From: an uncultured bacterium
Lineage (GTDB): Bacteria; Auribacterota; Erginobacteria; Erginobacterales; CAZKCI01
DNA: 64,000 nucleotides
Assembly: GCA_964584165.1 (NCBI GenBank)
Contig: CAZOYW010000007.1
Location: 32,886 to 96,885 of the forward strand
Direction: 5' to 3'
Under the pieces are notes generated by a model. The model saw only the letters and a program-made list of their open reading frames with translations. It was not told the origin of the DNA and made no database searches. Every line of letters starts with the position of its first letter. Position 1 is the first letter of the stretch. A program made the translations under genes and the position numbers. Shown one piece after another: positions 35,492 to 50,840 of the stretch.

Positions 35492-35494
35492 GGG

Positions 35495-36136
35495 TCAGCC
35501 TTTCAGGACGTTCAGCCGGTCGGCGTCGATGTGGTCAAACTCGCGGTTGATCCGGTAGATGGCGATCCCCATCACGAAGACCGCCGCGAAGAGGTCCATC
35601 AGGACGCCCAGCTCGATCAGGACCGGGATCTCCCGGGCGATCGCCAGGCCGAAAACGTAGATGCCGTTCTCGACCGCGAGATAGCCGATCGCCTGGTTCA
35701 TCGCCGTTCTCCGGGCCACGATCAGGAAGAGGCCGGTCAGCATCATCAGGAAAGACAACGGCGCGATGAGTCCCGAGGCGGTCTTCAGGGGAAGCGGCAA
35801 GCGGGAGTCGAGCCAGAAGGAGGCGAGCAGGGCGACCACGCCGAAGAGCAGGGACGCGGCGTAGCCGATGAAGGGCCGGGACTCGCGGTTGATGTCGGAT
35901 TCCCGCAAGGCGCGCGCGAGGAGACGGGGGAAAACGAAGCCCTTCATTCCGACCACGATCGCGCCGACCAAGGCCAGGCGCGTCGTCAGGCCGCCGCGCA
36001 GCGCGAGCGGAAGCAGCCCCGCCAGTATCCCCTGGACGGCGCCGATCCGGATGGAGACGCCGAAACGCCCCGCCCCCAGCAGAAGAAAGCTGGTCAGGAC
36101 CAGGGCGACGAGGAGCGTGTCCAGAACCGTCTTCAT
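35495..36136 (-). CDS. HyfE-like small membrane subunit
   Basis: 213 aa, about 6 TM helices. Position and size as HyfE/MbhH-type subunits. Confidence 0.6.
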   Translation of the reverse strand: MKTVLDTLLVALVLTSFLLLGAGRFGVSIRIGAVQGILAGLLPLALRGGLTTRLALVGAIVVGMKGFVFPRLLARALRESDINRESRPFIGYAASLLFGVVALLASFWLDSRLPLPLKTASGLIAPLSFLMMLTGLFLIVARRTAMNQAIGYLAVENGIYVFGLAIAREIPVLIELGVLMDLFAAVFVMGIAIYRINREFDHIDADRLNVLKG

Positions 36137-37053
36137 GACGCGAAACCCGCTACCAGGGCGAAGGCGAGCGCCGAGATGGCGCCCGCGCCCACCAGGAGCT
36201 GGGGGACCTTGGCGAGGGGGAGACGCGCCATCACCGACTCGATCGCGCCCACCGCGACGGCGAGAACCCCCATCCCTCCGGCGAAGGCGGCGAAGGCGAG
36301 CGGGGACGGAAGCTCCCAGGGCGAGAGGACGAGGTTCACGATCAGGCTCCCCGTCACCCAGAGCTTCAGCGAGGCGCCGTAGAGGACTAAAGCCAGGTCG
36401 GGGCCGGAGTAGTCCAGGATCATCACCTCGTGGATCATGGTGAGCTCGAGGTGCGTGTTGGGATCGTCCACCGGGATGCGCGAGTTCTCCGCCAGGAAAA
36501 CGATCAGGAGCGCCGAGGCGACCAGCGCCAGGGCGGGCCCCGACGCCGCCCAGGACGACCGGGAGAGGCCGGCGAAGATCCCGCTCAGGGAGAGCGAGTC
36601 GCCGGAACGGGCCAGGGCGGCCAGGCCGAGGAGGAGAGCCGGCTCGGCCAGGGCGGCGAACTGGACCTCGCGCGACGCCCCCATGCCTCCGAAGCTCGAC
36701 CCGGTGTCCAGTGCCGCGATCACCGTGACGAACCTCATCAACCCCAGGCAGTAGGCGAAGAGGATCAGGTCGCCCGGGAAGGAGACCGGCGCCGGCGACC
36801 CCGGGACGGGCAGGATCGTGAGCGCCGCCGCCACGGACGCGAGAGAGATCGCGGGAGCGGCTCGGAATACCCAGGTGGTGGTGCGGCTGTAAACGGCCCC
36901 TTTCCGGAGAAGCTTGGCGAGATCGCGGTAGGACTGGAGGAGGGGCGATCCCCGCCTCCCCGCGAAGACGGCCTTGGTCCGGTTGATCACTCCCGAGAGG
37001 AGGGGAGCGAGGAGAAGTCCGGCGACCGGCAATAGTATCGAAGACAGGCGCAT
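36133..37053 (-). CDS. NuoH/HycD/HyfC-like membrane subunit
   Basis: LLSGVINRTKAVFAGRRGSPLLQSYRDLAKLLRKG (HycD-type N-terminus). Confidence 0.8.
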   Translation of the reverse strand: MRLSSILLPVAGLLLAPLLSGVINRTKAVFAGRRGSPLLQSYRDLAKLLRKGAVYSRTTTWVFRAAPAISLASVAAALTILPVPGSPAPVSFPGDLILFAYCLGLMRFVTVIAALDTGSSFGGMGASREVQFAALAEPALLLGLAALARSGDSLSLSGIFAGLSRSSWAASGPALALVASALLIVFLAENSRIPVDDPNTHLELTMIHEVMILDYSGPDLALVLYGASLKLWVTGSLIVNLVLSPWELPSPLAFAAFAGGMGVLAVAVGAIESVMARLPLAKVPQLLVGAGAISALAFALVAGFAS

Positions 37054-37060
37054 GACGGCT

Positions 37061-39037
37061 CTAGAGTTTCCAGACCAGGAGGCCCACCAGCGCCAGGACG
37101 ATCCCCAGTATATAAAGGTTCAAACGCCCGTGCTGAAGGAGACGGAGCCGGGCCAGGAGCCCCCCCATGATCGAAAAAATCGGACGGTAGACGCCCTCCT
37201 GGTAGAGATCGGGCGTTTCGCTGGAGAAGGAGGATGACGCGGGGAAGAAACCCATGGGCGGAACGAAACGGCGGCGGGTGCGCAGGAAAACGCGGAACAT
37301 CCGCATCAGGGGATCGGCGAAGGAGGAGGCGGTGTATTGCATCCGGGGCGACGGCGCGATGTAGCCGCAGTCCCAGGTGACGGAGGCGCTCACCTCCCGG
37401 CCGCGGAGAAGGCGGTCTCGCGCCCAGTAGAGAAGGAGGGCAAGGCCGATCCCTCCCGTCGCCACCGCCGCGATCATGGTCAAGGCGTCGCCCACGCCCG
37501 CCGGGGCCGAAGACAAGCCGGCCACCACGCCGACCGCCGGCTGGAGGAATGGGATGATGAACGACCCGCCGAGGCCGATGGCGGCGCAGGTGGTCGCCAG
37601 AATCGCCATCGGCATCTTCATCGCCCCTCCCGATTCATGGGCCGCGGCGGACGCGGAGGAGCGCGGCTCGCCGAGGAAGATCACGCCGAAGGCCTTGACG
37701 AAGCAGGCCACCGCCAGTCCCCCGATCAGTGCCAGCGCGGCGAGGCCGATCATCCCGGCGAAAACCGTCCCGACGGGTTGGCGGCTGGGCTCGGCCACGG
37801 CGCGCAGGGAGGACAGGTAGATCAGGAACTCGCTCACGAAACCGTTGAGCGGCGGCAGTCCGCAGATGGCGGCCGAGCCGACGAGAAAGGCGAGTCCCGT
37901 AGCCGGCAACCGCTTGAGGAGTCCGCCGAGATGCTCGATATCGCCCGTCCCGGCGGCGTGGATGACCGACCCGGCGGAGAGGAAGAGGAGGCTCTTGAAG
38001 ACGGCGTGGTTGATCACGTGGAGGAGCGCGCCGGCCAGGCCCAGAAAGGCCATGGCCGGAGAGCCGTAGGAAATCCCCAAGAGGCCGATGCCGATACCGA
38101 GCGCGATGATCCCGATATTTTCGACGCTGTGGTAGGCGAGGAGGCGCTTGAGGTCGTGCTGGGCGAGCGCGAAGAGGACGCCCAGGACGCCGGAGACGAC
38201 GCCGATGGCGACGAGCGACCAGCCCCACCAGGGAGGCGGCGTCCCGAGAAAGGTGAGAACGCGCAGCAGGCCGTAGATCCCGGTCTTGATCATGACGCCG
38301 CTCATCACGGCGGAGACATGGGAGGGGGCGGCGGGGTGGGCCTCGGGGAGCCAGACGTGGAGGGGAATGAAACCGGCCTTGGCGCCGAAGCCGACGAGGG
38401 CGAGGAGGAAGGCCGCTCCGGCGAAGCCGGGGAGGGCGGCGGCGCGGGCGAACCCGCTGAACTCCAGGCCCTCCGCTCCCCGCCCGAGCAGCGCGAAGAG
38501 GGCGAGCAGGAACGCCGCCCCGATGTGGGCGGCGATCAGGTAGATCCAGCCGGCCCGGCGAACGCCGGCCTTCTCGCTGTCGAACATGACCAGGAAGAAG
38601 GAGGCGATCGACATCGCCTCCCAGGCGAGGAGGAAGAGGAGTCCGTCGCGCGCGAGCACCACCAGGAGCATGCTGGCGGTCAAGAGGTGGAAGAAAAACC
38701 AGGAGGCGGCGATGTCCCTCTTCCCCTCCCGGTCCCTGAGGTAGGCCGACCCGTATATCGCCGAGAGAGCTGTTATGGCGAGTATCGGGAGCGCGAAGAC
38801 GGCGGAGAGGGCGTCCAGGGCCAGGAGGATCGATCCGAATGGCATCGACCAGCCGAGGCGAAGGACGCCCAGAGAGTGTCCGCTCAACGCCATGAGGACC
38901 GGAGGGAGGCCGAGGAGAGCGGCGGCGACGGCGACCGCCGGCCCGACGACCCGCGTCCATGACGGACGGCCGATCGTGGCCAGGCAGAGGAACGCCCCCC
39001 CGAAGAGGACACTAAGAGCCGCGACGATCCAGATCAC
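37061..39037 (-). CDS. NuoL/MrpA/HyfB-like antiporter-type membrane subunit
   Basis: 658 aa. KAGFIPLHVWLPEAHPAAPSHVSA motif. GTG start overlapping the upstream stop. Confidence 0.8.
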   Translation of the reverse strand: MIWIVAALSVLFGGAFLCLATIGRPSWTRVVGPAVAVAAALLGLPPVLMALSGHSLGVLRLGWSMPFGSILLALDALSAVFALPILAITALSAIYGSAYLRDREGKRDIAASWFFFHLLTASMLLVVLARDGLLFLLAWEAMSIASFFLVMFDSEKAGVRRAGWIYLIAAHIGAAFLLALFALLGRGAEGLEFSGFARAAALPGFAGAAFLLALVGFGAKAGFIPLHVWLPEAHPAAPSHVSAVMSGVMIKTGIYGLLRVLTFLGTPPPWWGWSLVAIGVVSGVLGVLFALAQHDLKRLLAYHSVENIGIIALGIGIGLLGISYGSPAMAFLGLAGALLHVINHAVFKSLLFLSAGSVIHAAGTGDIEHLGGLLKRLPATGLAFLVGSAAICGLPPLNGFVSEFLIYLSSLRAVAEPSRQPVGTVFAGMIGLAALALIGGLAVACFVKAFGVIFLGEPRSSASAAAHESGGAMKMPMAILATTCAAIGLGGSFIIPFLQPAVGVVAGLSSAPAGVGDALTMIAAVATGGIGLALLLYWARDRLLRGREVSASVTWDCGYIAPSPRMQYTASSFADPLMRMFRVFLRTRRRFVPPMGFFPASSSFSSETPDLYQEGVYRPIFSIMGGLLARLRLLQHGRLNLYILGIVLALVGLLVWKL

Positions 39038-39750
39038 TCCTGGACGGCTCCTTCCTCCCTGTTCCCGGATGGGCGATGCGGGATGCTGCCGTCGACCAGA
39101 GCCGCGGCGGCGGCGATCTCGGCCCGGCTTCCGCGGCGGGAGATCGCATCGGAGAAAGCGGGATGGCGCAGCGCGAATGACAGCCGGGAGAGAAGATTCA
39201 GATGGGCCGAGATGGTGGGAGAGACGATCATGAAGATCGTGTGGACCGGTTTGCCGTCCAGAGAGCCGAAATCGATCGCTTTCTCCAGGAAACAGAGCGT
39301 CACCATCGGCTGGGGGATGAACATGACGATGGGGTTGCGGACATGGGGGATGGCGATCCCTTCGCCGATCCCCGTGGATCCCAGCGACTCCCGGGCCAGG
39401 AGCACGCGCAACAGGAACATCCGGTCGACTTCCTTCGGGAGCGCCATCATCTCGATGGCGGTTTTCAGGACCGAATCTTTGTCATCACCCTCCACCCGGT
39501 AGTGAATCCCCCCTGCCTGGAGGGCTTCCGCCAAGGAAGGGAACGGCACCTTGTCGCGGTCGGGGTCGGAGAAGATCTCGGTCGAGACGTTGACGCGGTG
39601 GGCCGTCGCCCATTCCAGGAGCTCGGCCCGGTTGATCCGGTATTGCTCGTTGATCTTGAAAACCGGGAGATTGTTCCCCTTGATCCACCGATAAACGGTC
39701 TTCTCCGACACGTTCATCAGCTCGGCTGCTTCTCTGACCCCTATCTGCAT
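39034..39750 (-). CDS. HTH (MerR/excisionase-type) DNA-binding domain fused to PTS EIIA(Fru/Ntr)-type domain; first gene of the Ehr-like operon
   Basis: N-terminal MNVSEKTVYRWIKGNNLP HTH. C-terminal EIIA-2-like domain with GIAIPH active-site His motif. Confidence 0.6.
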   Translation of the reverse strand: MQIGVREAAELMNVSEKTVYRWIKGNNLPVFKINEQYRINRAELLEWATAHRVNVSTEIFSDPDRDKVPFPSLAEALQAGGIHYRVEGDDKDSVLKTAIEMMALPKEVDRMFLLRVLLARESLGSTGIGEGIAIPHVRNPIVMFIPQPMVTLCFLEKAIDFGSLDGKPVHTIFMIVSPTISAHLNLLSRLSFALRHPAFSDAISRRGSRAEIAAAAALVDGSIPHRPSGNREEGAVQE

Positions 39751-39845
39751 ATTTTCTTATCTCTGTATTCCCTCGCTTGTGACAATCCTGGACATATTAT
39801 CGCCCATAGCCCCACTTGTCCACGCCAAACATGCTTTCGCGTGCC

Positions 39846-39881
39846 TGTGGGAGCCCCGATCGAATCGAAGATTCGATCGGG
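39846..39881. mobile_element. TGTGGGAG-family MITE-like element (partial), palindrome CCCCGATCGAATCGAAGATTCGATCGGG
   Basis: Same family as 24632-24707. Confidence 0.45.
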
Positions 39882-40125
39882 ACGATCCAAGCCAGCCAAG
39901 CCCATGCGAGCGCTATCTTGGATGCTATTGTAGCGTCGGGCCTCCTGGCCCGACGTCGTCAGAACCGTCGTAGATGCCTTTCAGTTGCGATATCCAATTT
40001 CGCTCCGAATCTCCGCATCCTGTGTTTTCCATTCGTAGCCTCGGACCTTAATCCCCTCTTCCCGCTCCGCGAATTGTAGGCCGGGTCTGTGACCCGGCGC
40101 GAGGGCGAAGCGGGGGATTTCTTCT

Positions 40126-40488
40126 CTAGTCGCTCTTGTTTTCCTCATCGCTTTCGCGATTATGCGAATCTCCATCTATCCCCGCCCTTTTCAATAGATT
40201 GAATACTAACTTGCCCCTAAACAGCATATACCACGCCAACACAACATATAGCATTATGTGAATAACATTATTTGCGAATGCCGATATATCGATATTTTGC
40301 GCCGTCTTGGCAATATATGTCGCCATATCTTGCCCGGATTCGTCGATATGAATCCTGGGCATGGCGATATACTTGTACATGGATATCATAAGGGATGGCA
40401 GTATCATGACGGCCTTAATGCCGCAATATACGCCGAATGCCCTTACGATCACCCAGGCTGTTTCAGCCCCGTTCATATTCATCTTCAC
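40126..40488 (-). CDS. small membrane protein (2 TM), AT-rich, island-borne
   Basis: 120 aa. GC content far below the genome background. Confidence 0.4.
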   Translation of the reverse strand: MKMNMNGAETAWVIVRAFGVYCGIKAVMILPSLMISMYKYIAMPRIHIDESGQDMATYIAKTAQNIDISAFANNVIHIMLYVVLAWYMLFRGKLVFNLLKRAGIDGDSHNRESDEENKSD

Positions 40489-41360
40489 GTTATTTTCCTT
40501 TTTGGGTATTCAGACCCGAAGCCTCATCCCCACATTTCACTCAACATCCTCGCCCGTTTCAACTTATTCATGAGCACCAAGCGGGGTGCCAATAACCCTT
40601 GGTGAAAGTTGACCGGGCCGATCCTCTTGGCAGGTCTATGAGCAAGACACTACATTTAAGACTTCAAGATCTCAGATTGAGATCTTAAACGCTGCCCGTC
40701 GTTCCGCACACCATGCACTGCGGTTCCCGCCCATCCCTATCTCGCGGGCCTGTTCCCCGGCATTAGCCGTATCTCACGAGGTGATGGCTTGCCTGTATTT
40801 CAACGATCACTTCCTGATATATCGCGATGTTCATCGGGAACTGTTCGCAAATTGCGCTGAATTAGGTGAACCCGCCAACTCGGCCGCACGTCTCGATCAG
40901 GCCGAATGAGAATGTTGACTGATTGATACGTCCTCTGTCTTCATCTTTTTTGCTCGCTTATAAAGCCCCGAAACCCCGGAGGGGTGATCGACAATAGCCA
41001 AGGGGTTTACCCCCTGCTCTGAAGGCAAAATCAGCATGGAGCCCCGGAAGGGCGACGGAATCCCGCCGCCGAAGCTAGCCTCGCGAAATCGCCTGCGCTC
41101 CATCCCCTGCCTTCCTGTCCCGTGCCAATCCAAGGAAGGCTCTCATTTACAACTGTCCAGTTTTTGGGGGGCAGGTCATCCCGAGCATAGGAAAAATAAA
41201 TGATGGTGCACTTTTCAACATAATTTCTCTCCCTAATGGTTAAGGGATTTACTCTAACGGCTCCCGCTCAAGCCGCCCCCCTTTTCCCAGCACTCATTGA
41301 TCGGCGGCTTACAGCCGATTTTTAACCCTAATTTCGGCTTTAAGCCGTTATAAACCCCCA

Positions 41361-41396
41361 TTTATGCGTATCCCTTTGCTAATCAACCAGATTCCG
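41361..41396. repeat. 36-bp direct repeat R1 (tttatgcgtatcc...caaccagat.ccg), 3' of the RSD gene
   Basis: 30/36 identical to R2 at 42818-42853. Confidence 0.6.
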
Positions 41397-41435
41397 TGGT
41401 CCGACTACATGTTCGATATCTCTAGATATTACTCC

Positions 41436-42482
41436 TCACGCCTTGTCATTATCCTTTTTATTGTCTTCATTTTTAGTTGTTAGTGGAAAACCCAATAAGC
41501 CCGGAAATGTCCCCAATCCATACTTTGATATGTCAATCCTGAATTCGTTAGGATTTGGTATACCAGCTATATTTGGACTATCTAAAATGTACATATTCGG
41601 ATCAAATATATTGATCTTTTCTATCTGAAACGCATTCAACTTATTTATCAGTTCCTCCTTTTCCTTTTTTTCAATTTCTAGCTTGTCGATTTTCACTTTA
41701 AGATCTTCAATTATGCAAGACAATTTATTTACCTCCATCTTATGAACTTCAGCAGTTTCGTCAATCTTCCCCTTTAAATACTGTATATATGAGCCCATCC
41801 CATCCGCGCTTCCAGCGAGGCCATTAAATATTTTCAGGTACGGCATTAGTATTGGATTATCTTTGTCGTATGGATATCGCATTTTATGATCGATTTCGCT
41901 CCACGCCTCTTCAAATATAGTTCGTACTTGAATTTCAACAATAACAGGTTCCTTTGTCGGTTGGGTTTTAATTATGTAATGTACAGATCTATATCCATAC
42001 GGGTGGTTTTCCACCACACATCCCTTGTCTGTATACCTATTTTTTTCGTCGCCTTCACGAATATATGCCTTCGGCTTTTCGATGGTCTCCCATTCATTAA
42101 TAATATATTCATGAATATCATCCCAATCATTTTTAAATAAATGCATTACCCTTACCCCAGCTAAATCAATTACAATGTTCCGATAATTATCTATAGCAAT
42201 TCTAACCTCGGAGTTTTCAAGAGATTTTCGAATAATTTTCTCAATTAAATGATCCGATTCTTTAATGCGTGTTTTTACTGAATGAGCTTTAGGTATATTT
42301 CTTAGCCTTTCGGCAATAGAATTCGCTGCTTGAAATAGATTCATAAATGTTTTATCATAATCTTCGACTATCGCCATCAAATTGGCCCACTTTAATCCTG
42401 ATTTAATATAGTTATCATCGGGTATTCTATACTTCTTGATAAAATCCTTATAATTCATAGCACGACTCCATTGTTTATGCAT
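41436..42482 (-). CDS. RelA/SpoT-domain (RSD) protein, toxSAS/CapRel-like single-chain architecture
   Basis: HSVKTRIKESDHLIEKIIRK, YRSVHYIIKT, VEIQVRTIFEEAWSEIDHKMRYPY (synthetase-fold motifs). C-terminal ~140 aa with coiled coil. Low GC. Confidence 0.7.
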   Translation of the reverse strand: MHKQWSRAMNYKDFIKKYRIPDDNYIKSGLKWANLMAIVEDYDKTFMNLFQAANSIAERLRNIPKAHSVKTRIKESDHLIEKIIRKSLENSEVRIAIDNYRNIVIDLAGVRVMHLFKNDWDDIHEYIINEWETIEKPKAYIREGDEKNRYTDKGCVVENHPYGYRSVHYIIKTQPTKEPVIVEIQVRTIFEEAWSEIDHKMRYPYDKDNPILMPYLKIFNGLAGSADGMGSYIQYLKGKIDETAEVHKMEVNKLSCIIEDLKVKIDKLEIEKKEKEELINKLNAFQIEKINIFDPNMYILDSPNIAGIPNPNEFRIDISKYGLGTFPGLLGFPLTTKNEDNKKDNDKA

Positions 42483-42599
42483 TATTCAATTCCACCTTGG
42501 ATCCCTGGATTCGATAGCTTATTCCTTACTGGTGAAGATAGCTTTGAGAACAAAACAGCTACAACATCACCTCCAATGCATTCTCTTGCTTCAACCTGT

Positions 42600-42790
42600 C
42601 AATGAGCTCTAGGCGGGGGGCCTGGATATTCCCCTTCGGCGGGAAGTGGAGCCCCGCACCATTTTTACGCCTCAATGCGAAACTCTAAGCGAAGTGCCCT
42701 TGGCCAATCTATCGCCGCAGAAGACCGGGGCACAAGCCGAAGGGTCGACCGAGCGGATCCGCTTAGGCCGGCCTTTGAGCAAGACGCTGC
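42600..42790 (-). pseudogene. degraded 3' fragment of a GIY-YIG-family paralog (related to the C-terminus of the 47014-47817 gene)
   Basis: The minus strand translates to VLLKGRPKRIRSVDPS... and ...NIQAPRLELIDR. Compare KYIVLLKGRPKRVGPVDSSPKVNIQAPRLALLDRLI in the intact gene. Frameshifts and a stop are present. Confidence 0.5.
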
Positions 42791-42817
42791 TGTTGTTTTG
42801 ACTCCTTTTTATGCGTA

Positions 42818-42853
42818 TCCGCCTGTCAAGCAACCAGATGCCGAAGCCTAACC
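42818..42853. repeat. 36-bp direct repeat R2, immediately 3' of the PHP-SMC ATPase gene
   Basis: See R1. Confidence 0.6.
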
Positions 42854-42863
42854 GCGCATTTAT

Positions 42864-45845
42864 CTATCCAGCCTCGCCTAAAATATGTTTCCACTGTAAT
42901 CGGTAACGCCGCTCACGTTCTAAAAATGCACGTTCCCCTCCCTCTAGAATCCCGCACACCGTCGTCCGGATATTCGGGTTTTCAAGCGACCCGCTCTGAT
43001 ATTTAATGTGTGGAAGAGTGCCGTCTATACTCGGAGTGGCAGTTGCAATAATCACCTGATCCGCATCCGTATTAACGACCAAGTTGGCATTGTGAGTTAC
43101 GATAATTACCTGTCGGCGCTTACGTACTTGACGAAAGTGCGGTACCAAATCATCGAAAACTGATTTGGGATCAAGATTCTCCTCCGGTTGATCTATTAGA
43201 AGGGGGCGCCGGTCGTTGCGATCAATTGCGAGGTATAGCAAAAGAAGCACTATTCCACGCGTACCGGGAGATACCTGTTCAACAACAACCCCATCATACT
43301 CAATCCCATAACGAATTTCGATGTGCTCAGTGCTGTAAAGCCACGCTCCGATCTGGCGAAACCACTCTACCTTTTTCCCGGGTTCGATCGATGAAGGCAT
43401 TGCAGCCTGAATATCATCCGAATGTTTCGCCACGAAATCATGCATAGCCGTCGCCACTTCATCGGGGTTTCCGACGCGCCACGGCGATAAAAGAGCATCC
43501 TTTGTAATGCTGGCCAGTGTGCCGTGCCCTCGAAATGGTGTGTTCTTCCGCAGATCGAGCAATTCTTCCCCAGCCTTAACCCAATCATTGAAACTAACAT
43601 GTCGCCTGACAACAAAACGCATTTTGGCGAGCGCCCCTTGCTCTCCTTCGAGCTCTTTGTGCAACGGCGTATAAAGACGTGCTAGAGCCCGCTCTTCTTC
43701 TGCAAATGTATTGAAAATCGAGCGGTAGGCTTGTCTGCGCGTGGCTCGTAGAGCGCGTAGTCGTTCGTCCGCCCCTTCCCCATTGTCGATCGCGAGGTCT
43801 AGCTTTTTTAGGCTAGTCTCATTCGCTGCAATCGCTCTATTGAGGATGTCATATTTCCTTTGCTTAATCTCGTCACCCCCAACCTGCTTTTTCGCGGCGG
43901 CACGCGCAGATTTCAGCGCGTCGAGCGGCCAAACGTTCAACGGCACTTTCGTAAGATCTAACGGATTAGTAGGGTCGACGCATTGAAGCTTAGTAATCTC
44001 ATTCGCGACTTTGCTTTTAGCTTGGGTGATGATCGTCTCCACATCGCCGGAATATTTTAGCCGGAAATTCCCCCACTCGATTTCAGTAAGACCTGACTCA
44101 GCGAACCTCTCGCGCATTTCAGCCAAACGTTGCGCGGCATCTTGATCGCGAATGAATATCACCTCGGCGAGCAAGTCATCCAAAGCTTTTTGCCTCCGCC
44201 TCAAGCTTTCAACGCGGTTTTCTGCGTCCGTACATGCCAGATCAAGTTCGAGCAACCGCTGGGCTCGTTTTCCAGCATCCTTCGGCAGCAGGTTCTCAAG
44301 ATCTTTGCGAGATTTCTTGAGTTGCACGCCCAAACTATTGCGATCAATTCGGAGCTTGGGCAATTGATCCTGCAACCGCATCTCCATGGCAATTTTCGCA
44401 GAAGCTGTCGCCACACTTTCGATTTGCTGCTGGCGGCGGCGTCTGATCGGTTTCAGCAACAGATCTGCAAGCGCCTCGAAAGATTCGGTTTGCATACGGT
44501 CTACTGGTTCGGTTTGGTCGAAAATCACCCTCTCAATCTCTTGTCGTAGTTCGACGGCAAGCCCTGCAGATGAGCAAAGTTGTTCCACGAACTGCTGTGA
44601 GAGATAGCGCACCTGCGGCATTTCCTCCGTCCATTCGTCGGGTGAACGGAAGGGAGCCAACTTCCTCTCACCATCGGCCCAGACCTCTTCAACTTGAGCG
44701 TCGCCGATGAGATCGTCAGGTGAGGTGGCTCGCCGCAAAAATGAGGATTCACCCAAGTTGTTGCCGATTGCCTGAGCACCGGCGGCAATCATGTCAAGCA
44801 GCGCGGTCTTGCCAGAACCCCGCTCGCCAATGATGCTGATAAGTCCATGGTTCAATTCGATTTCTTTATTGAGGACCCAAGACATGCCGATGGGCTTTAT
44901 GCTCTCGAGGGTAACCGAATCGGGGATTTCAGTCGGAGATCGTTCGCTGATCGAGACTCGTTCTTCCGGCTCAATGACGGCCTGGCGGAGACTCTCAAAT
45001 GCGAGATCGCCCTTGATCCAGCAATAGCGCGCCAAGTCTGGAGCAGCGACACGGTCCAATTGGTGAGCGTCACATCCATGGAGGCAAGGCTTGATTGCAC
45101 CATATCTGCGTTCAATCGCCTTGCGATCCATCCCGGCCTTGAACCCTAGCCAAAAATCATGGTCGGCTTTGTTGCCTGAGAAGATTATATGCGAGAAACC
45201 CTCGATTTCTTGCCGGATAGCGGAGAAGGCATCATCCTCTTGGAGGCCAGAAGTCCCATCACATTTCGAACTTGCGACTGCCACGAGGCAGTTGTGTCGA
45301 ACCCAGGAATCTTCACGAAAAAGACCTCGCAGCTGGTCAAGGGTTACTTTGAACTGACCAACACCTTCTCGGAATGCACCTTCATCATCCGTTTGCTTTG
45401 GATTATACTTGCGGCCCAATGCGATGAGTTCCGAGCGCGCGCATGAATATTTTCGCTCCTTATACTCGAACGTGAGCTTTCCGAGAATTCGTTCAATCTG
45501 CTGCTCGTGATCCAGATCATCAGGAGAAAACAAGAGATGAATATTGATGCCTTTACTTTGCGCGGTCTTGAGCTCAAGCCTCATTTCAATATTTGGGAAA
45601 ATAAGGTCCACTTGAGGCAGCCGGCCCTCAGCTTTATGCGCACAGATTTGCTTATAACTCTGGATGCACAAATAATCCGTGATGCCTATGGCTCGGATGG
45701 TAGGGGATGCATTTTCGATCTTTTCCAGATAACCCTGCCAGGCACCAGCGAACTGATCACCCAGCACGGTTCCCGGTGCATGAATATGGGGGTCCCAGCG
45801 GTGCCATTCTGAACCGCGCAGGCTCCATTTTGGTGTTGCTTTCAT
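42864..45845 (-). CDS. PHP (polymerase/histidinol-phosphatase) domain fused to SMC/RecF/ABC-type coiled-coil ATPase (993 aa)
   Basis: N-terminal WDPHIHAPGT...AIGITDY (PHP motifs). Walker A IIGERGSGKTALL. Roughly 450 aa of coiled coil. C-terminal LLIDQPEENLD (Walker B / D-loop) and VTHNANL (H-loop). GGAGGA RBS; AT-rich upstream region. Confidence 0.8.
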   Translation of the reverse strand: MKATPKWSLRGSEWHRWDPHIHAPGTVLGDQFAGAWQGYLEKIENASPTIRAIGITDYLCIQSYKQICAHKAEGRLPQVDLIFPNIEMRLELKTAQSKGINIHLLFSPDDLDHEQQIERILGKLTFEYKERKYSCARSELIALGRKYNPKQTDDEGAFREGVGQFKVTLDQLRGLFREDSWVRHNCLVAVASSKCDGTSGLQEDDAFSAIRQEIEGFSHIIFSGNKADHDFWLGFKAGMDRKAIERRYGAIKPCLHGCDAHQLDRVAAPDLARYCWIKGDLAFESLRQAVIEPEERVSISERSPTEIPDSVTLESIKPIGMSWVLNKEIELNHGLISIIGERGSGKTALLDMIAAGAQAIGNNLGESSFLRRATSPDDLIGDAQVEEVWADGERKLAPFRSPDEWTEEMPQVRYLSQQFVEQLCSSAGLAVELRQEIERVIFDQTEPVDRMQTESFEALADLLLKPIRRRRQQQIESVATASAKIAMEMRLQDQLPKLRIDRNSLGVQLKKSRKDLENLLPKDAGKRAQRLLELDLACTDAENRVESLRRRQKALDDLLAEVIFIRDQDAAQRLAEMRERFAESGLTEIEWGNFRLKYSGDVETIITQAKSKVANEITKLQCVDPTNPLDLTKVPLNVWPLDALKSARAAAKKQVGGDEIKQRKYDILNRAIAANETSLKKLDLAIDNGEGADERLRALRATRRQAYRSIFNTFAEEERALARLYTPLHKELEGEQGALAKMRFVVRRHVSFNDWVKAGEELLDLRKNTPFRGHGTLASITKDALLSPWRVGNPDEVATAMHDFVAKHSDDIQAAMPSSIEPGKKVEWFRQIGAWLYSTEHIEIRYGIEYDGVVVEQVSPGTRGIVLLLLYLAIDRNDRRPLLIDQPEENLDPKSVFDDLVPHFRQVRKRRQVIIVTHNANLVVNTDADQVIIATATPSIDGTLPHIKYQSGSLENPNIRTTVCGILEGGERAFLERERRYRLQWKHILGEAG

Positions 45846-45970
45846 CTGATAACTATAGTCCTCCAGTTGCTTGTTCGCGATATATTCAGATCCCGAATAT
45901 TGCCCATTGCCATATAATTTCCCCGATATTTACGCTAGGTATAGCTATAATTTGAGGTTATCATCCAATA

Positions 45971-46417
45971 TTACAATTTCTGAATCCATTTCGCGAAATC
46001 GGATTGTGTCTTCTTCCCTACTGCAACGGATCCCCCGCGGGTAAAATGTTTGCTTCCCGCTATCCAAATGTATCCGCCAAAATCAGATGGAAGAAATAAA
46101 TCCCCATATTGAATCATGGCTACCTTTTCTTTCCCGAAATGGCCGAAGAAATAGCCAAACTCAAACATAACATTCAGATTTGGGATGTTCTTTTTCTGTT
46201 TCTTGATTATCGTTCGGGATTCCGGAGAGAAAACAAGCAAGGCTCCTTGCACTTTCGCGCGGATAGAGTCTAGTTCTTCCAGTAAGTTTCTCCCGGGAGT
46301 AAACGCATCCCACCACGGTAAGAAGGAGACAACATTTGAGGTTAAAGCTTTGACAATCGCTTTGGCTTGGGACCTGGCTGCCGACGACGAACCGATGAAT
46401 AGCTTTATTTCTGGCAT
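45971..46417 (-). CDS. TIR-like domain protein (COG4271/PF10137-type predicted nucleotide-binding TIR-like)
   Basis: 148 aa KLFIGSSS...PWWD.F..G...L..L......GALLVFSPE...NVMFEFGYFFGHFGKEKV...LPSD.GG pattern. Confidence 0.55.
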   Translation of the reverse strand: MPEIKLFIGSSSAARSQAKAIVKALTSNVVSFLPWWDAFTPGRNLLEELDSIRAKVQGALLVFSPESRTIIKKQKKNIPNLNVMFEFGYFFGHFGKEKVAMIQYGDLFLPSDFGGYIWIAGSKHFTRGGSVAVGKKTQSDFAKWIQKL

Positions 46418-46530
46418 ATTTGTTCCTCCCTTCCATTGTTTAATTTCAGATATTATTTGAATACGTAGGCCAACGTCCTAACCTACTTTAACCTATCCAT
46501 AAGCGCCGAACGAATGGTATGAATATTCAT

Positions 46531-46896
46531 CTATTTCAGAACAATGGATAGAATACCCACAAGTAGCCCTATAATGCTTGCAATCGCTCCCCAAGTTTGT
46601 AGATTTACATCAATCTCGGGATATTTATCTCTAATATATTTCGCCAATATAATACCTCCAACGCAGGAACCCCCTACAAGAACAAGCAGGAATGCTGTCT
46701 TGATCAATATTGGGCCTATATTATAGCTTGGCAAAGGTGTTCCTAGCGAAGATTCCCAAATGTAGACTATTGGCCGAACAAGTGCTCCATGCCGCGTTGC
46801 AGGGAAAAACACTGCTAATATTAGCAATAATAGCAATACTGCAATTGTGCACAAACATCCAAACTGATCTGTTTTATTAAAATTGCTTCTAAACAT
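46531..46896 (-). CDS. small membrane protein (3-4 TM)
   Basis: 121 aa. Hydrophobic segments CLCTIAVLLLLLILAVFF, AFLLVLVGGSCVGGIIL, AIASIIGLLVGILSIVL. Confidence 0.45.
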   Translation of the reverse strand: MFRSNFNKTDQFGCLCTIAVLLLLLILAVFFPATRHGALVRPIVYIWESSLGTPLPSYNIGPILIKTAFLLVLVGGSCVGGIILAKYIRDKYPEIDVNLQTWGAIASIIGLLVGILSIVLK

Positions 46897-47013
46897 AAAT
46901 ATGCCCTTTTAGTTTCAGCGAGATATGCTCGCTAATATCGACACCGCCTCTGCCAACGTCCTCGACCGCTTCAACCTGTTCATAAGCGTCAGGCAGGGGA
47001 CCTGACTACCTGA

Positions 47014-47817
47014 CTACAGTGCATTTGCCAATGTCTTCGCCCGGATCAGCCGATCCAGCAAAGCCAGGCGCGGGGCCTGGATATTGACCTTCGGCGAGGA
47101 ATCTACCGGACCAACCCTCTTGGGGCGGCCTTTGAGCAACACGATATATTTCCCTGACTTGCGCCAGGGCTTGATCTTCCGGATGCGGCCATAATGGGTC
47201 ACTTGCTTGATGGGCGAGGTAAGGTAAATCGCAAGGTATTTCAGCCTCGGGATGACCCGCTTGGAAAGGCGGATGGCATACCAACGGTTTTTGCCCAGGA
47301 ACTCCTTCTCGAACCCATCCTTGTGAGCCGGGCAGACAAGCGTGTCATACTCCCCTCTTCGCCGGCGGACATCACAGCTTGAAGATACCTTCTTCGGAAC
47401 GCCTCCGGTGATATCAGCCAACTCGCGCCGCTGGGACTGAACGATCCGGCTCTTGAACACCCGGTAAAGATCGCGCGAGGCGGTGATTTTCCCTGAAACC
47501 CGATTCCCTTTGGGCGAGGCTATCCTCAGAACCAGCGACTCAAGCTCCCGCAAATGCTCGTCGCCCTGAGTCAGATAGATGCTGAACCGGTCCCATTCCT
47601 CGGCATGGCGATCCTTGAGGTGGCCATGCAGCCTTGATCGAAGGTTCCGGGCCAGGCCGACGTAGTAGAGGCTATCCCCGGCATAAAGAGCATATACCCC
47701 GCTCTTCCCCCGGGCGAATTCGGTAATGATATCCGGATATCTTTTTATCGCCGTCCGGGCGATGTTCTCCAAATGCTCGACGACGAGCGGGGCTTTCCCA
47801 ATCCGTTTTCTTCTCAC
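47014..47817 (-). CDS. GIY-YIG nuclease-domain protein with ~170-aa C-terminal domain
   Basis: GVYALYAGDSLYYVGLARNLRSRLHGH (GIY-YIG). Cys/His pair CDVRRRRGEYDTLVCPAH. Degraded copies of its 3' end elsewhere in the island. Confidence 0.6.
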   Translation of the reverse strand: MRRKRIGKAPLVVEHLENIARTAIKRYPDIITEFARGKSGVYALYAGDSLYYVGLARNLRSRLHGHLKDRHAEEWDRFSIYLTQGDEHLRELESLVLRIASPKGNRVSGKITASRDLYRVFKSRIVQSQRRELADITGGVPKKVSSSCDVRRRRGEYDTLVCPAHKDGFEKEFLGKNRWYAIRLSKRVIPRLKYLAIYLTSPIKQVTHYGRIRKIKPWRKSGKYIVLLKGRPKRVGPVDSSPKVNIQAPRLALLDRLIRAKTLANAL

Positions 47818-48078
47818 TTGGCATCTCCTTTCACAATCCCAATCGCTTCCTCCGTCAGTTCAAATAGCTCATAATGACCGAACTTGTACAGGCGGGAAGG
47901 TTGCGCTCGAAGACTTCGACCAGGCGTTGGATCTTGTCCGAGGCGGGCATGGTCTATACCGGAGGGTTGTTTATAATCATACAAATCCCCGTTTTCCAAT
48001 TCCATAAGATATTCCATTACATAATATATTCCAGTTCCCCCCTCCCTCCTATTCATAGCCCCCCCCGCCTGCTCCCCC

Positions 48079-48463
48079 TGGGACACTTCCTGTCCGATCG
48101 GACAAGGTTTGTCCACTTTTGATCGGGAATGGAGGATTTCCGGCCCCCCCAACCCAGCATTGATCTGGGACAACTCGTGTCCGATCGGACAGGGTTTGTC
48201 CACTTTTGAGCAGGAATGGAGGGTTTCTGGCCCCCCCAACCCAGCATTGATCTGGGACAACTCGTGTCCGATCGGACAGGGTTTGTCCACTTTTGAGCAG
48301 GAATGGAGGGTTTCTGGCCCCCCCAACCCAGTATCGAGCTGGGACAACTCGTGTCCGATCGGACAAGGTTTGTCCGTTTTTGATCGGGGAACGAGGGCTT
48401 TTCCTGCTCCAAACCCACCCATTGAGTTGGGACAACCCATGTCCGATCGGACATGGGTTGTCC
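48079..48463. repeat. array of five ~87-bp tandem repeats, each containing the perfect palindrome TGTCCGATCGGACA (last unit a perfect 36-bp palindrome)
   Basis: gggacaactcgtgtccgatcggacagggtttgtcca...cccccccaacccagcattgatct repeated. Lies in the divergent region between the GIY-YIG and PaaX-like genes. Confidence 0.85.
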
Positions 48464-48567
48464 CAATGTCGTCTCCTGATGAGTTCATTGCCCTTGAAAT
48501 CTCTGCAAGAAATATCCGTTCAAAAGAGTCCTTATAGTAGGGCGGGCAATGTCCGCATGAGCGCCGA

Positions 48568-49356
48568 TTGCCCCTCCATCGCGGAGACGCGCGGATGCCA
48601 ACCGTTGCCGAAGATATCCTGATGCTCCTCGCCGAGGGAGCGTTCCGGCTCCTGACTTTCCGCTCCCTGTTCACGCTCGACTGGGGGTTCAGCTCTCCGG
48701 CTTATCGCAAAACGATCACCCGGCTCGAAAAAGACGGCGCGGTCCGGCGGGTGCAACATAGACGCGACGTGTATCTTCATCTCACCGATCGAGGCAGAAA
48801 AATTCTGGAACAACGCCGTCCTCCCCCGAGAAAATCCCCGCCGACCTGGGATCGTCTCTGGCGGCTGGTGATCTTCGATATCCCGGAGAAAAGAAACGAG
48901 GACCGCCTTCTGCTCCGTCGGTATTTGACGGCATCGGGGTTCGCAAAAGTGCAAAAGAGCGTTTGGATCGCTCCCTATGACCGCGAAGAACAAGTGCAGG
49001 AGTTCACCCGAAAAATCGATATCCAACGCTATGTATTGCAGCTGACGTTTAAAAAATTCCGCAACCTCGAGGAGCGGGATTTAGCCGCGTCGTTCTGGGA
49101 TATCCAAGGTCTGCAAGTTCGCTACCAGGAACTGATCCAACGCTACGCGAAAAGAATGGCCGTGCTCCCGGCAGGGACAAGGGGGGCGGCGATTGGGCGC
49201 AGACAGTTCTTGAACGATCTGCTCTGGGATTACCAAACTATCCTGGCCTTAGACCCTCAACTGCCGACCGAGCTGCTTCCGGCGAACTGGAGCGGCGCGG
49301 CCGCGAAGCAGTTCGTGAATCGCTGCCGCACCCTTTTCTCCAGCGGCCCTGTGTAG
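48568..49356 (+). CDS. PaaX-family winged-helix transcriptional regulator
   Basis: WDRLWRLVIFDIPEKRNEDRLLLRRYLTASGFAKVQKSVWIAP matches the PaaX C-domain consensus. N-terminal wHTH. The start may be ATG 48595. Confidence 0.6.
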   Translation: MPLHRGDARMPTVAEDILMLLAEGAFRLLTFRSLFTLDWGFSSPAYRKTITRLEKDGAVRRVQHRRDVYLHLTDRGRKILEQRRPPPRKSPPTWDRLWRLVIFDIPEKRNEDRLLLRRYLTASGFAKVQKSVWIAPYDREEQVQEFTRKIDIQRYVLQLTFKKFRNLEERDLAASFWDIQGLQVRYQELIQRYAKRMAVLPAGTRGAAIGRRQFLNDLLWDYQTILALDPQLPTELLPANWSGAAAKQFVNRCRTLFSSGPV

Positions 49357-49385
49357 CGCAATCCGGATATGCGTTGTTGCACGCT

Positions 49386-49507
49386 CGGACAACTTCTGTC
49401 CGATCGGACAGGAGTTGTCCCGATGAAACCAGGTTTTCGGGAGGCAGTTTCCCCCTCTTTCATGCTTGGATTTGGGACAAATCCATCCGATCGGACAGGT
49501 TTGTCCC
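49386..49507. repeat. two further 34-36-bp palindromes of the TGTCCGATCGGACA family, 3' of the PaaX-like gene
   Basis: cggacaacttctgtccgatcggacaggagttgtccc and gggacaaatccatccgatcggacaggtttgtccc. Confidence 0.8.
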
Positions 49508-49532
49508 AAGCCCGAAGCAGGCGGAAAGGGGG

Positions 49533-49780
49533 GATGAGGGATGAGAGATGAGGCATAAGAGATGAGGCATGAGGGATGAGGCATGAGGAACAAGGAGGGG
49601 CGACTGCCGATGCTGGACCGTCCCGGCGCAGGCGGTTTCCCGATTTGGCCCGTGCCGCGACATTCCAGATGGGCGACCGCCGATGCTGGACCGACCCGGC
49701 GCGGGCGGTTTCCCGATCTGGCCCTTGCCGCGACATTCCAGAGGGGCGACTGGCGATGCTGATCCGTGCCGGCGCGGCCT
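49533..49780. repeat. GATGAGG(C/G)AT heptamer run, then 2.5 tandem ~75-bp repeats, upstream of hypE
   Basis: gatgagggatgagagatgaggcataagagatgaggcatgagggatgaggcatgagg; then ggggcgac.gccgatgctggaccg.cccggcgc.ggcggtttcccgat.tggccc.tgccgcgacattccaga.g two times plus a partial copy. Confidence 0.75.
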
Positions 49781-50821: not shown

Positions 50822-50840
50822 GCGGCTTAGCCCGGCGAAG

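Follow-up and report, generated by a model that had tools for sequence, protein, structure and literature searches.

The stretch of DNA analysed here (the window, 64,000 nucleotides from an uncultured bacterium) holds, at 40100-47950, the variable cargo slot of an anti-phage defence island, in which the 3' end of a nuclease gene recurs as scars between different cargo genes. Most likely these scars record the repeated stacking of defence genes behind the nuclease gene by ordinary recombination, not by a dedicated integrase. The reading that accounts best for the data, to which a probability of roughly 0.55 is given, is that modules were stacked and replaced in a hypervariable slot, imprecisely and with homology as the anchor. 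The scars are truncated at variable points and occur in other lineages; between near-identical strains the cargo has been replaced; and in one pair of related loci the nuclease gene is a mosaic with a displaced older end. The recombination pathway itself we infer from these features. Coordinates are collected in Table 1.

Table 1. Features of the cargo slot, with positions in the window (an asterisk marks a stop codon).
Feature	Position	Strand	Remarks
Type IIG (Eco57I/MmeI/TaqI_C-type) restriction-modification (RM) gene, 3'-end relic	47818..47946	-	ends ...LTEEAIGIVKGDAK*
Resident GIY-YIG gene	47014..47817	-	267 aa; predicted nuclease domain and C-terminal ASCH/PUA-like domain; 'A-type' end ...LLDRLIRAKTLANAL*
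Remnant B	46943..47005	-	last ~63 nt of an older 'X-type' allele, ...LMNRLKRSRTLAEA
Membrane protein	46531..46896	-	121 aa; ORF; AT-rich, GC3 0.32
Remnant C	46457..46532	-	last ~75 nt of the gene, MNIHTIRSALMDRLK*VRTLA
TIR-domain protein	45971..46417	-	148 aa; CAP12/Pycsar effector type; Pfam PF10137, E 3.3e-19
Ppl-like ATPase	42864..45845	-	993 aa; PADLOC Ppl, E 3e-27
R2	42808..42843	-	R repeat copy; extended match 42788-42856
Remnant D	42560..42786	-	about the last 55-60 codons, two blocks in different frames
RelA/SpoT-domain protein	41436..42482	-	348 aa; small alarmone-synthetase-like; Pfam PF04607, E 1.8e-20
R1	41361..41396	-	R repeat copy; extended match 41341-41409
Lineage-specific intergenic repeat	40966..41082	-	holds an Acido-Lenti-1-like motif, 40972-41017
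DnaJ-type CXXCXGXG zinc-finger pseudogene	40700..40863	-	132-aa protein; in-frame stop, truncated
Remnant E	40544..40657	-	about the last 40 codons, LAHRPAKRIGPVNFHQGLLAPRLVLMNKLKRARMLS; small deletions
TM120 membrane protein	40126..40488	-	120 aa; final island gene before conserved chromosome

The gene behind which the cargo is stacked was characterised from its sequence motifs and from a predicted structure. Pfam detected the GIY-YIG domain with an E-value of 0.0021 and 18.7 bits, which is under the cut-off of 22.6. The motif columns (Y42, Y51-Y52-V53-G54, R62, H66, E93 and N105) were invariant among 24 homologues, and Foldseek matched the AlphaFold model (pLDDT 78.7) to UvrC GIY-YIG domains with a probability of 1.0 and a target-normalised TM-score of 0.66. 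On modelled fold and motif together the protein is assigned to the GIY-YIG nuclease superfamily. Its C-terminal half, which is the part that was duplicated, matched the ASCH structures 5y6b, 3iuw and 5guq (probability 0.99-1.0, target-normalised TM-score 0.5-0.67) and is predicted to be an ASCH/PUA-like beta-barrel acting as a reader domain. The top structural match spanning both domains (E 5.6e-4) was PD-T4-3, a 5hmC-specific GIY-YIG restriction endonuclease (PDB 9u75) that likewise combines the nuclease with a PUA/ASCH-like reader. The two differ in that sequence identity is 11-14% and the global TM-score about 0.2, which is low because the domain arrangement differs, and in that the family to which the window protein belongs usually occurs together with a type IIG RM gene, behind which its members sit. 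Homologues numbered 2407 and were mostly 267 aa long; at many loci very different co-oriented partner genes lie directly downstream. The family was absent from the phage collection searched, and in the plasmid collection its members were rare and distant.

The coupling to an RM gene has left a trace in the window. A tblastn search for type IIG RM protein relics upstream of the GIY-YIG gene returned none at E < 0.01; a DNA profile later recovered the last ~40 codons of such a gene there. The relic overlaps the start codon of the GIY-YIG gene, and a profile of GIY-YIG 5' regions matched the window at 47946-47728 (E 1.4e-37). Canonical loci read ...LTKDEIKIVEGEAK* at the position matching the end of the relic, and homology with one of the related loci, L001, begins at 47952. 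Two further loci carry comparable traces: in L108, following a 146-aa cargo insertion, a diverged relic of the RM gene 3' end (67% nucleotide identity, with an in-frame stop) precedes the GIY-YIG gene, and in L123 the match is weaker and degenerate.

The cargo of the island consists of TIR, Ppl-like and RelA/SpoT genes and of small membrane proteins. The TIR protein also matched the PADLOC TIR effector (E 9.6e-20), and the RelA/SpoT protein, whose gene is AT-rich (GC3 0.33), matched PADLOC PDC-S33 (E 1.1e-8). In the 993-aa protein the Ppl match is limited to two stretches, the better being residues 835-980; Pfam found AAA_21, SMC_N and AAA_23. The 121-aa membrane protein had no match in Pfam or PADLOC. 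Towards the conserved chromosome lies a degraded zinc-finger gene, recognised when the L001 protein was used as a tblastn query (64% over 50 aa, E 3.9e-14); the gene, which matches Pfam PF00684, is intact in L001 (17208-17606) and L123 (4649-5047). The neighbouring intergenic repeat is 93% identical to L123 5440-5556 and 77% identical to L104 848-947; its Acido-Lenti-1-like motif scored 31.6 bits against Rfam RF01687 (E 4.6e-4), under the gathering score of 37. The 120-aa membrane gene falls within a flank that is 99.2% identical between the window and L121, a sister strain.

Four remnants of the GIY-YIG 3' end (B, C, D and E) were significant against the family profile, with E-values down to 1.9e-12, and aligned as coding sequence. 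All are co-oriented with one another, truncated to differing limits on the 5' side and complete to the stop codon, and the distance from each to the following cargo start codon is 40-95 nt. Two of them had been noticed in the first-pass annotation. The frameshifted copy that it placed at 42600-42790 was borne out as remnant D, by tblastn in two frames (RRIRIKRSQNNSSVLLKGRPKRIRSVDPS and PKGNIQAPRLELIDRLKQENAL, E 2.5e-6) and by nhmmer with the family profile at 42560-42650 (E 4e-6) and 42732-42786 (E 2.8e-3). The copy that it put near 40590-40650 is equally real (remnant E), but cannot be called more degraded, since it gave the strongest profile match of all the remnants (nhmmer E 1.9e-12, profile positions 46-166); it recurs in L121 at 11748-11848 (E 1.1e-8). 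Remnants B and C were absent from that annotation and were found by profile search. B begins 9 nt past the resident stop codon (nhmmer E 2e-6, profile positions 117-179) and has orthologous copies in L001 (E 6.5e-10; 87% identical to the window copy) and L123. C is the most decayed copy; it was detected by nhmmer (E 7e-4, profile positions 107-182), was also aligned by tblastn and is 78% identical to B over 37 nt. B, D, E and the B copy of L001 all encode a consensus-like ...LMDRLKRARTLAE tail. They are 75-87% identical among themselves and 60-74% identical to the resident end and, being closer to each other than to that end, are therefore read as older or foreign alleles and not as duplicates of the present end. 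The two blocks of D are set apart by about 82-97 nt of unrelated sequence, which showed no structure on folding (z 0.24) and of which no further copy was found. A suggestion that this ~90-nt insert is a copy of the Acido-Lenti-1-like repeat at 40966-41082 was rejected, as the two had no BLAST similarity and the insert is unstructured.

A pair of 36-nt direct repeats, R1 and R2, had also been reported, each 3' of a minus-strand island gene. That placement was confirmed: R1 lies 40 nt past the stop of the RelA/SpoT gene, and R2 lies 21 nt past the stop of the Ppl-like gene and 21 nt before remnant D. The position given for R1 stands, but the interval given for R2 (42818-42853) matches R1 at 8/36 positions and the true partner is 42808-42843; the reported identity of 30/36 is that of the best 36-nt window, the two being 29/36 identical in register. 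The similarity reaches 43 nt at 77%, and 20 shuffles of 39750-47900 never rose above 25/36. Further copies were found at L001 16099-16158, L001 16908-16966 and L104 3-62, the L104 copy lying on the only further contig that turned up when metagenomes were scanned for the R core. R1 and R2 are members of a distinct family of short, lineage-specific intergenic repeats, with five copies on three contigs, which stand 20-120 nt past cargo genes, and neither is an att-like copy of the gene end; the R copies had no match at E < 10 to profiles of the 420-nt 3' and 240-nt 5' regions of the gene family. Several other identities were considered and dropped. A weak tblastn extension (RRIRIK) had hinted that R1 and R2 lie within a gene remnant, and both family profiles were negative; an origin in the GIY-YIG 5' end or upstream region gave an unconvincing alignment and a negative 5' profile search. 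A terminator was rejected as neither 41341-41409 nor 42788-42856 holds a terminator-like site and there is no stable conserved stem, and a structured RNA as the R alignment has a weak 7-pair stem only, without covariation. A sigma-54 promoter, judged by inspection of the sequence only, was rejected as in R2 the distance between GG and GC is wrong by one and an L001 copy lacks the GC. The R repeat may act as another homology anchor.

Comparison with related loci showed that the scar pattern has also arisen independently outside the window's lineage. Two Aminicenantes loci carry it, L010 with two remnants (in the order PanA toxin-antitoxin, remnant, DUF4143 ATPase, remnant, AbiE, with PanA and AbiE on the opposite strand) and L112 with one (AbiE, remnant, HigBA). 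In L001 and L123 the B remnant is followed by other cargo; these two loci have the GIY-YIG gene, B and the zinc-finger gene in common with the window, entirely different cargo between them and other chromosomal contexts. The first-pass annotation had suggested looking in related genomes for different cargo separated by the same repeat, and as other cargo with remnants of this kind is seen in L010, L112, L001 and L123, a description as successive additions beside the 3' end of the gene is fair. The A|B joint is common to the window and L001, which has no C, D or E; the history is therefore not tree-like and the order of events is uncertain. At strain level, the flanks of L121 are 99.2-99.8% identical to those of the window, the GIY-YIG region 92% and the E region 80.6%, and its slot holds one different cargo gene. 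In four variants (window, L001, L123 and L121) cargo starts 0-20 nt past a gene or remnant stop codon.

Evidence on how the joints formed came from the Aminicenantes loci. When L010 and L112 are compared, identity within the GIY-YIG gene stands at 97-100% for nt 61-360 but drops to 72-78% in the final 80 nt. The remnant in L112 resembles the end of the L010 gene (about 87% identity) more closely than the resident end of L112 itself (about 73%). This mosaic identity within the anchor, together with the displaced older end behind AbiE, points to a homologous crossover inside the gene. For the window the sign of such a crossover is indirect only, the GIY-YIG region being 92% identical to that of the sister strain as against 99% for the flanks. 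One of the L010 relics, c3, comprises the last 51 nt of the methylase gene upstream, the first GIY-YIG codons and the last ~16 codons, and reads as an internally deleted copy of the whole gene, not as an att site.

These observations would be accommodated as follows. The island would have arisen from a type IIG RM operon, its 267-aa GIY-YIG/ASCH gene serving as the anchor directly 3' of which cargo was repeatedly joined, this cargo comprising the membrane protein, the TIR and Ppl-like genes and the RelA/SpoT gene. DNA arriving from a related island would bring a GIY-YIG gene, in full or only its 3' part, with other cargo behind it. Its left side would pair by homology within the resident gene; the joint on its right side would be imprecise and would at times fall in the final 50-200 nt of that gene. 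The product would be, in order, an intact and partly foreign gene, the new cargo, a 5'-truncated and 3'-complete piece of the old gene and the old cargo. Where a whole second copy was brought in, it would later be lost by internal deletion. The scars would afterwards decay by frameshifts, stop codons and an insertion, and their persistence is probably due to the translation start region of the following gene lying inside them. Replacement of the whole slot also occurs, by what would be a double crossover in conserved bookends, one formed by GIY-YIG and B and the opposite one by the zinc-finger gene, E and TM120. Some caveats must be applied to homology-anchored stacking. Cargo starts 0-20 nt past the stop are more regular than random illegitimate joints and could hint at targeting, only 4 of about 25 distinct full-length loci carry remnants, and the role of the R repeat is left unaccounted for. 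No donor sequence was found for the window cargo, the RelA/SpoT gene having no close relative and its nearest database relatives being about 50% identical, and the uncertain, non-tree-like order of events noted above also counts against it.

The first-pass annotation had read the island as the product of serial site-specific integration, and that reading was right about the gene-end duplicates in direct orientation between different cargo, although the site-specific part is not supported. Integrative elements with an attP mimicking the GIY-YIG 3' end would have been inserted serially by a tyrosine or serine recombinase, every insertion rebuilding the gene and pushing the previous end away. The 3'-complete, co-oriented copies and the intact gene are what is seen in integrase-mediated islands, which are known for tandem accretion at the 3' end of tRNA, tmRNA or protein genes and likewise have different cargo between 5'-truncated direct repeats; the cargo starts 0-20 nt past the stop codon in several variants and the recurrence of the pattern in two phyla also fit. 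A linked recombinase gene was not found, however: Pfam detected no integrase, recombinase or transposase domain in the island genes or in roughly 8 kb flanks (32523-39750 and 48568-57112), and none was found in the L010 and L112 islands. Nor is there a fixed crossover point, as six different starting points are seen among the remnants on the 183-nt profile (4, 46, about 54, 107, 117 and 139), with no common crossover core, and inspection of their sequences revealed no inverted-repeat recombinase-binding architecture. The c3 relic of L010 reaches the upstream gene and is internally deleted, and identity within the anchor is mosaic, both of which count against an integrase. C is the nearest remnant with cargo on both sides, yet the most decayed, which argues against a simple series with the newest insertion proximal. 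The present repeats differ further from those of integrase islands in deriving from diverged alleles and in one case from a deleted whole copy, and the target is itself a defence gene. Integrase-mediated insertion is accordingly regarded as quite improbable. The outcome that would have undone the duplication claim altogether, chance similarity or ordinary Rho-independent terminators, is extremely improbable: R1 and R2 do lie just past stop codons and C by itself is marginal (E 7e-4), but the R1/R2 match was never reached by shuffles, no terminator-like site, conserved hairpin or covariation accompanies the repeats, the remnants are significant against the profile and orthologous copies exist in other contigs.

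Two other routes are unlikely. Redundant nuclease copies could have been eroded from the 5' side after [GIY-YIG + partner cargo] modules had piled up in tandem, the erosion halting where the expression signals of the next gene start. The c3 relic is demonstrably a deleted full copy, the gene lies directly upstream of very different co-oriented partners at many loci and the RM gene relic shows like 5' erosion; against this, none of roughly 120 loci has two full-length copies, PanA and AbiE in L010 are on the opposite strand and so are not operonic partners, and the mosaic gene and displaced older end of L112 indicate a joint inside the gene, not later erosion. A comparably low probability attaches to the idea that recombination between two fresh gene-end repeats excised cargo and one repeat copy as a circle, which re-inserted by a single Campbell-type crossover at any similar GIY-YIG gene end, making that end a portable attachment site that needs no recombinase. 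Remnants more alike mutually than to the resident end would be expected of a shared repeat type, R2 adjoins the 5' limit of D, as would be expected of a joint left by circle closure, variable remnant length fits differing amounts of carried homology and all remnants lie directly upstream of cargo. No circular form or identical repeat pair was seen, though, and the present repeats, 58-87% identical and 40-180 nt long, would be poor substrates; linear replacement of modules would account just as well for c3 and for the exchange of the whole slot in L121. From sequence data alone such circles and homology-anchored stacking cannot be told apart. A more speculative extension, held to be rather doubtful, is that the 3' end of the GIY-YIG/ASCH gene is a portable, integrase-free and attI-like attachment point for defence and toxin-antitoxin cassettes, which may enter just 3' of the stop as gene-end-repeat circles or via nuclease-made breaks; the latter variant may amount to a homing-like co-conversion of the gene end and downstream cargo. 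If true, it would explain the cargo starts at 0-20 nt in four variants and the recurrence in two phyla.

The arrangement has partial counterparts among known systems. Integron arrays and CALINs (attC clusters without integrase) likewise have mostly co-oriented, short-spaced cargo rich in defence and toxin-antitoxin genes, each piece behind a repeat copy, in an array that adjoins a conserved gene. They differ in that no IntI is present here (no Phage_integrase match in the scanned window ORFs), that the repeats are coding-sequence relics without attC-like hairpin symmetry (an Rfam scan of 39000-50000 found no attC-like sites) and that repeat length varies by truncation, not by a variable loop. 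Homology-facilitated illegitimate recombination, known from transformation experiments and reportedly described by de Vries and Wackernagel as combining one homologous anchor with one illegitimate joint, resembles the island in several ways: homology is confined to one side and lies in a conserved gene, foreign DNA is added to what was there, the distal joints vary and the anchor is a mosaic. That such recombination could repeatedly feed the growth of a defence island at one anchor gene is our inference. Hypervariable defence hotspots include those of P2 and P4 and core-gene-flanked ones in E. coli, Pseudomonas and Vibrio. As in those, near-identical strains (L121 and the window) hold different cargo between bookends and recombination occurs in the flanks; here, by contrast, one bookend is an RM-associated nuclease gene with its own 3' end repeatedly duplicated, and the bookended unit occurs in three chromosomal contexts. 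In PMC2568036, the evolutionary unit in clusters of tandem paralogues is the 3' region of an ORF, the intergenic region and the 5' region of the next ORF. The likeness is that junctions lie inside the 3' part of the upstream gene, the downstream gene carrying a piece of its former neighbour, and the difference is that those clusters are of paralogous lipoprotein genes in one species and the cargo here is unrelated defence genes behind a nuclease gene. A search of the literature found no description of 3'-end scars of this GIY-YIG family.

Defence islands turn over fast, but sequence seldom reveals how they gain genes. In this island the joints have survived: a nuclease gene has stayed in place as the anchor, and fragments of its own tail show where older cargo was displaced. 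Annotators should note that a short 'GIY-YIG-like' ORF in an island of this type is a scar. Should the process behind the pattern prove to be targeted, it would amount to a cassette-capture system of a new kind. If the pattern holds generally, gene-end relics could be used to locate cargo slots and to order acquisition events, and conserved defence genes themselves, not integrases or core-gene flanks, could act as the homology handles for the exchange and stacking of cargo.

Copies of the 3' end of the GIY-YIG gene, which the first-pass annotation had placed near 42600-42790 and 40590-40650, were recovered both by tblastn and with a DNA profile of the terminal 183 nt, built from 17 distinct members of the family, an extended profile also being used. 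These are remnants D, which matched in two frames, and E; two further remnants, B and C, were added. All lie on the strand of the gene, are cut off on their 5' side and extend to the position of its stop codon. The distance to the next gene start was 47 nt from B (membrane-protein gene), 40 nt from C (TIR gene), 78 nt from D (RelA/SpoT gene) and 56 nt from E (120-aa gene). C is the most decayed, though it is the nearest to the GIY-YIG gene among those flanked by cargo on both sides. Remnant D is split by ~82-97 nt of unrelated, unstructured sequence with a visible, only possible, short duplication of the target TCGCC; neither the window nor the loci retrieved for comparison contain a second copy of this insert.

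Coordinates of the island and of related features (window unless a locus is named; E, DNA-profile E-value)
Feature	Coordinates	Strand	Remarks
Low-G+C island	~39750-49500		34-58% G+C; flanks 63-73%
GIY-YIG gene (A), 267 aa	47817-47014	minus	first in island order
Membrane protein, 121 aa		minus	second
CAP12/Pycsar-type TIR protein		minus	third
Ppl-like ATPase, 993 aa		minus	fourth
RelA/SpoT-domain protein, 348 aa		minus	fifth
Zinc-finger pseudogene		minus	sixth
Membrane protein, 120 aa		minus	seventh, last
Remnant B	46943-47005		E 2e-6
Remnant C	46457-46532		E 7e-4
Remnant D, profile	42574-42650; 42732-42786		E 4e-6; 2.8e-3
Remnant D, tblastn	42824-42738; 42639-42574		residues 213-241; 242-263
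Insert in D	42651-42732		
Remnant E, profile	40544-40657		E 1.9e-12
Remnant E, tblastn	40646-40539		residues 228-264
R1; partner	41361-41396; 42808-42843		
R copies, L001	16099-16158; 16908-16966		
RM 3'-end relics	47818-47946; L108 4450-4586; L123 2583-2677; L105 upstream of 1932		
286-aa ORF	47814-48674		
87-nt units	48059-48468, 49387-49425 and 49486-49502, palindrome copies included		
GAGGCATGAGG-type repeats	49524-49593		
73-nt repeats	49595-49775		
REP-like palindrome CCCCGATCGAATCGAAGATTCGATCGGGG	39854-39885; 51954-51985; L121 11999-12029		
Hairpin motif CGCCGGGTCACAGACCCGGCCTACAA	40074-40099; L001 19750-19775		
Acido-Lenti-1-like match	40972-41017		31.6 bits, gathering score 37; E 4.6e-4
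Dispersed repeat	40966-41082		
Proteins sharing C-terminus	24795-26474; 27051-30179; 54413-57112; L001 11048-15982		
AbiE module	L010 5773-7082; L112 2892-4201		opposite strands
368-aa gene	L123 3478-4584		

The island is flanked on one side by a hyf-type hydrogenase/complex-I-like operon and a PTS-EIIA/HTH regulator gene and on the other by a PaaX-like gene and hypE, with no tRNA genes within the window. Four to five tandem 87-nt units separate the PaaX-like gene from the GIY-YIG module. Each includes a 34-nt palindrome (GGACAAC..TGTCCGATCGGACA..GTTGTCC), more copies of which come after the PaaX-like gene; the six occurrences of TGTCCGATCGGACA, against a chance expectation of none, are confined to this region. 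A CRISPR array was ruled out, as the units are conserved over their full length; they may be operator sites for the PaaX/Cas2-like regulator, and the 286-aa ORF running through them is probably spurious. Short GAGGCATGAGG-type repeats stand immediately ahead of three 73-nt tandem repeats (89-92% identical), which precede the hypE-like gene and run into its start. The 26-nt hairpin motif CGCCGGGTCACAGACCCGGCCTACAA, identical in the window and the related locus L001, directly follows the last island gene in both, with similar motifs in metagenome contig L104 and at ~39950, and probably represents a REP or terminator element found throughout the lineage. The Acido-Lenti-1 RNA motif is matched below threshold inside a repeat also found in L123 (93% identical) and L104 (77%), which points to a dispersed intergenic element and to a lineage of acidobacterial type.

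The direct repeats R1 and R2 had each been reported to lie just 3' of a minus-strand island gene. R1 was where it had been placed, whereas the true partner lies ten bases from the position given for R2 (29/36 identical against 8/36). Neither chance nor termination accounts for them: the best pair of 36-mers reached 30/36, against a maximum of 25/36 in 20 island shuffles, and the copies were without a terminator pattern, their alignment having neither conserved structure nor covariation. No match was found in Rfam or to GIY-YIG profiles. Further copies, sharing the core GGTCGGACCnCGGnATCTGrTTGnTTGAnAAGGGGA, occur twice in L001 and at the end of L104, and in each of the five cases a co-oriented gene has its stop codon 20-120 nt ahead of the copy. 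R2 adjoins remnant D with a gap of 21 nt, and a zinc-finger gene is preceded by R1 in the window and by the second copy in L001. R is regarded as a lineage-specific intergenic repeat and may serve as a right-hand homology anchor.

More than 2,400 homologues of the GIY-YIG protein occur in several phyla, most of them exactly 266-267 aa long and 63-91% identical. Its Pfam GIY-YIG match is sub-threshold only; the catalytic motif columns are invariant across 24 homologues. In an AlphaFold model (pLDDT 78.7) the N-terminal half resembles UvrC GIY-YIG domains and the C-terminal half ASCH domains, and over both halves it matches PD-T4-3, a 5hmC-specific restriction enzyme; on this model the duplicated part encodes the end of the reader domain. 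In most loci the gene stands behind a 957-1051-aa Eco57I/MmeI/TaqI_C-type restriction-modification (RM) gene with a 4-nt overlap, or ahead of a type ISP enzyme. This partnership and the likeness to a restriction enzyme indicate that the anchor is itself a defence gene. In the window a profile of GIY-YIG 5' regions found the RM partner reduced to its last ~40 codons, ending ...LTEEAIGIVKGDAK*. Such a type IIG RM relic always precedes the GIY-YIG gene, even where the RM gene is lost or split off by inserted cargo, and is the same 3'-end signature one gene further upstream. It is diverged in L108 (67% nucleotide identity, in-frame stop), where cargo stands between both genes, and a weaker, degenerate match in L123; the signature in these loci thus reflects module joining and not a special GIY-YIG site.

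Arrays of other cargo, anticipated for related genomes, were found, with remnants in 4 of about 25 distinct loci having the full-length gene. L001/L007 (91% amino-acid identity), at another chromosomal site beside cdhD, carries the gene, B, a 1644-aa beta-helix protein, R, DUF2569, R and an intact zinc-finger gene. Over its C-terminal ~240 residues this beta-helix/PMP-repeat protein is 50-56% identical to the C-termini of three large proteins encoded elsewhere in the window, beyond the island; the shared domain is lineage-specific and possibly a surface anchor. In L123 the order is RM gene, DUF3800, RM-end relic, GIY-YIG, B, a 368-aa gene and an intact zinc-finger gene. The 368-aa gene has no Pfam match; by eye only, its TNPD..LE and KIHGS motifs recall SIR2-type defence effectors, and its annotated reading frame begins in an overlap with the GIY-YIG stop and passes through B. 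Two loci are from Aminicenantes: L010, with methylase, GIY-YIG, a PanA-type toxin-antitoxin pair, remnant c2 (58 codons, 85% nucleotide identity), DUF4143 ATPase, remnant c3 and AbiE, and L112, with RM, GIY-YIG, AbiEi/AbiEii, a remnant and HigBA. Their AbiE modules are inverted relative to each other (81% identity), and in both the AbiEii stop codon adjoins a GIY-YIG end relic.

The sister strain L121 matches the window in its two flanks, at 99.8% identity along 9.7 kb and at 99.2% along 8.7 kb, whereas its GIY-YIG region is just 92% identical and is followed by one unrelated 261-aa membrane-protein gene, then by the tail of the zinc-finger pseudogene and remnant E (80.6% identical). The whole slot has therefore been replaced between near-identical strains, on sequence comparison by what would be crossovers within conserved sequences on both sides. 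The REP-like palindrome CCCCGATCGAATCGAAGATTCGATCGGGG stands at two places in the window, and in L121 only a copy of it, together with adjacent sequence, separates E from the 120-aa gene as an insertion; from its distribution this element seems mobile or recombinogenic.

Serial cassette insertion was thus broadly right as accretion behind the gene, but site-specific integration into the gene end was not supported. In four variants (the window, L001, L123 and L121) cargo does start within 0-20 nt of a stop codon, either the gene's own or that of B. This regular joint may merely reflect where shared homology ends, and there is a small chance of a genuine targeted capture mechanism behind it. Against an integrase, the remnants are truncated differently in six of six cases (profile positions 46, about 54, 107 and 117 in the window, with 4 and 139 completing the set), and neither the island genes and flanks nor L010 and L112 yielded a recombinase or transposase domain. 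B, D, E and the B of L001 share 75-87% mutual identity against 60-74% to the resident ends, and encode ...LMDRLKRARTLAE, as does the family consensus, where resident genes end ...LLDRLIRAKTLANAL; they are relics of older or foreign alleles. Between the L010 and L112 genes identity is 97-100% over nt 61-360 and drops to 72-78% across the final 80 nt, and the remnant that follows AbiE in L112 resembles the L010 resident end (about 87% identity) more than that of its own locus (about 73%), a mosaic predicted by a crossover inside the gene that displaced the old end. In remnant c3 the final 51 nt of the methylase gene (96% identical to the actual gene) are joined to a few initial GIY-YIG codons, the last ~16 and downstream flank, so the locus once had a complete second copy, which was later deleted internally.

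Imprecise recombination anchored by homology, with module replacement, is the most likely mechanism, not site-specific integration. The joint between the gene and B is common to the window, L001 and L123, and C and D are absent from the latter two, so the history is mosaic and not a simple newest-proximal series; no donor sequence for the window cargo was found. The phenomenon belongs with known defence-island hotspots and with gene-end duplications at integration sites.
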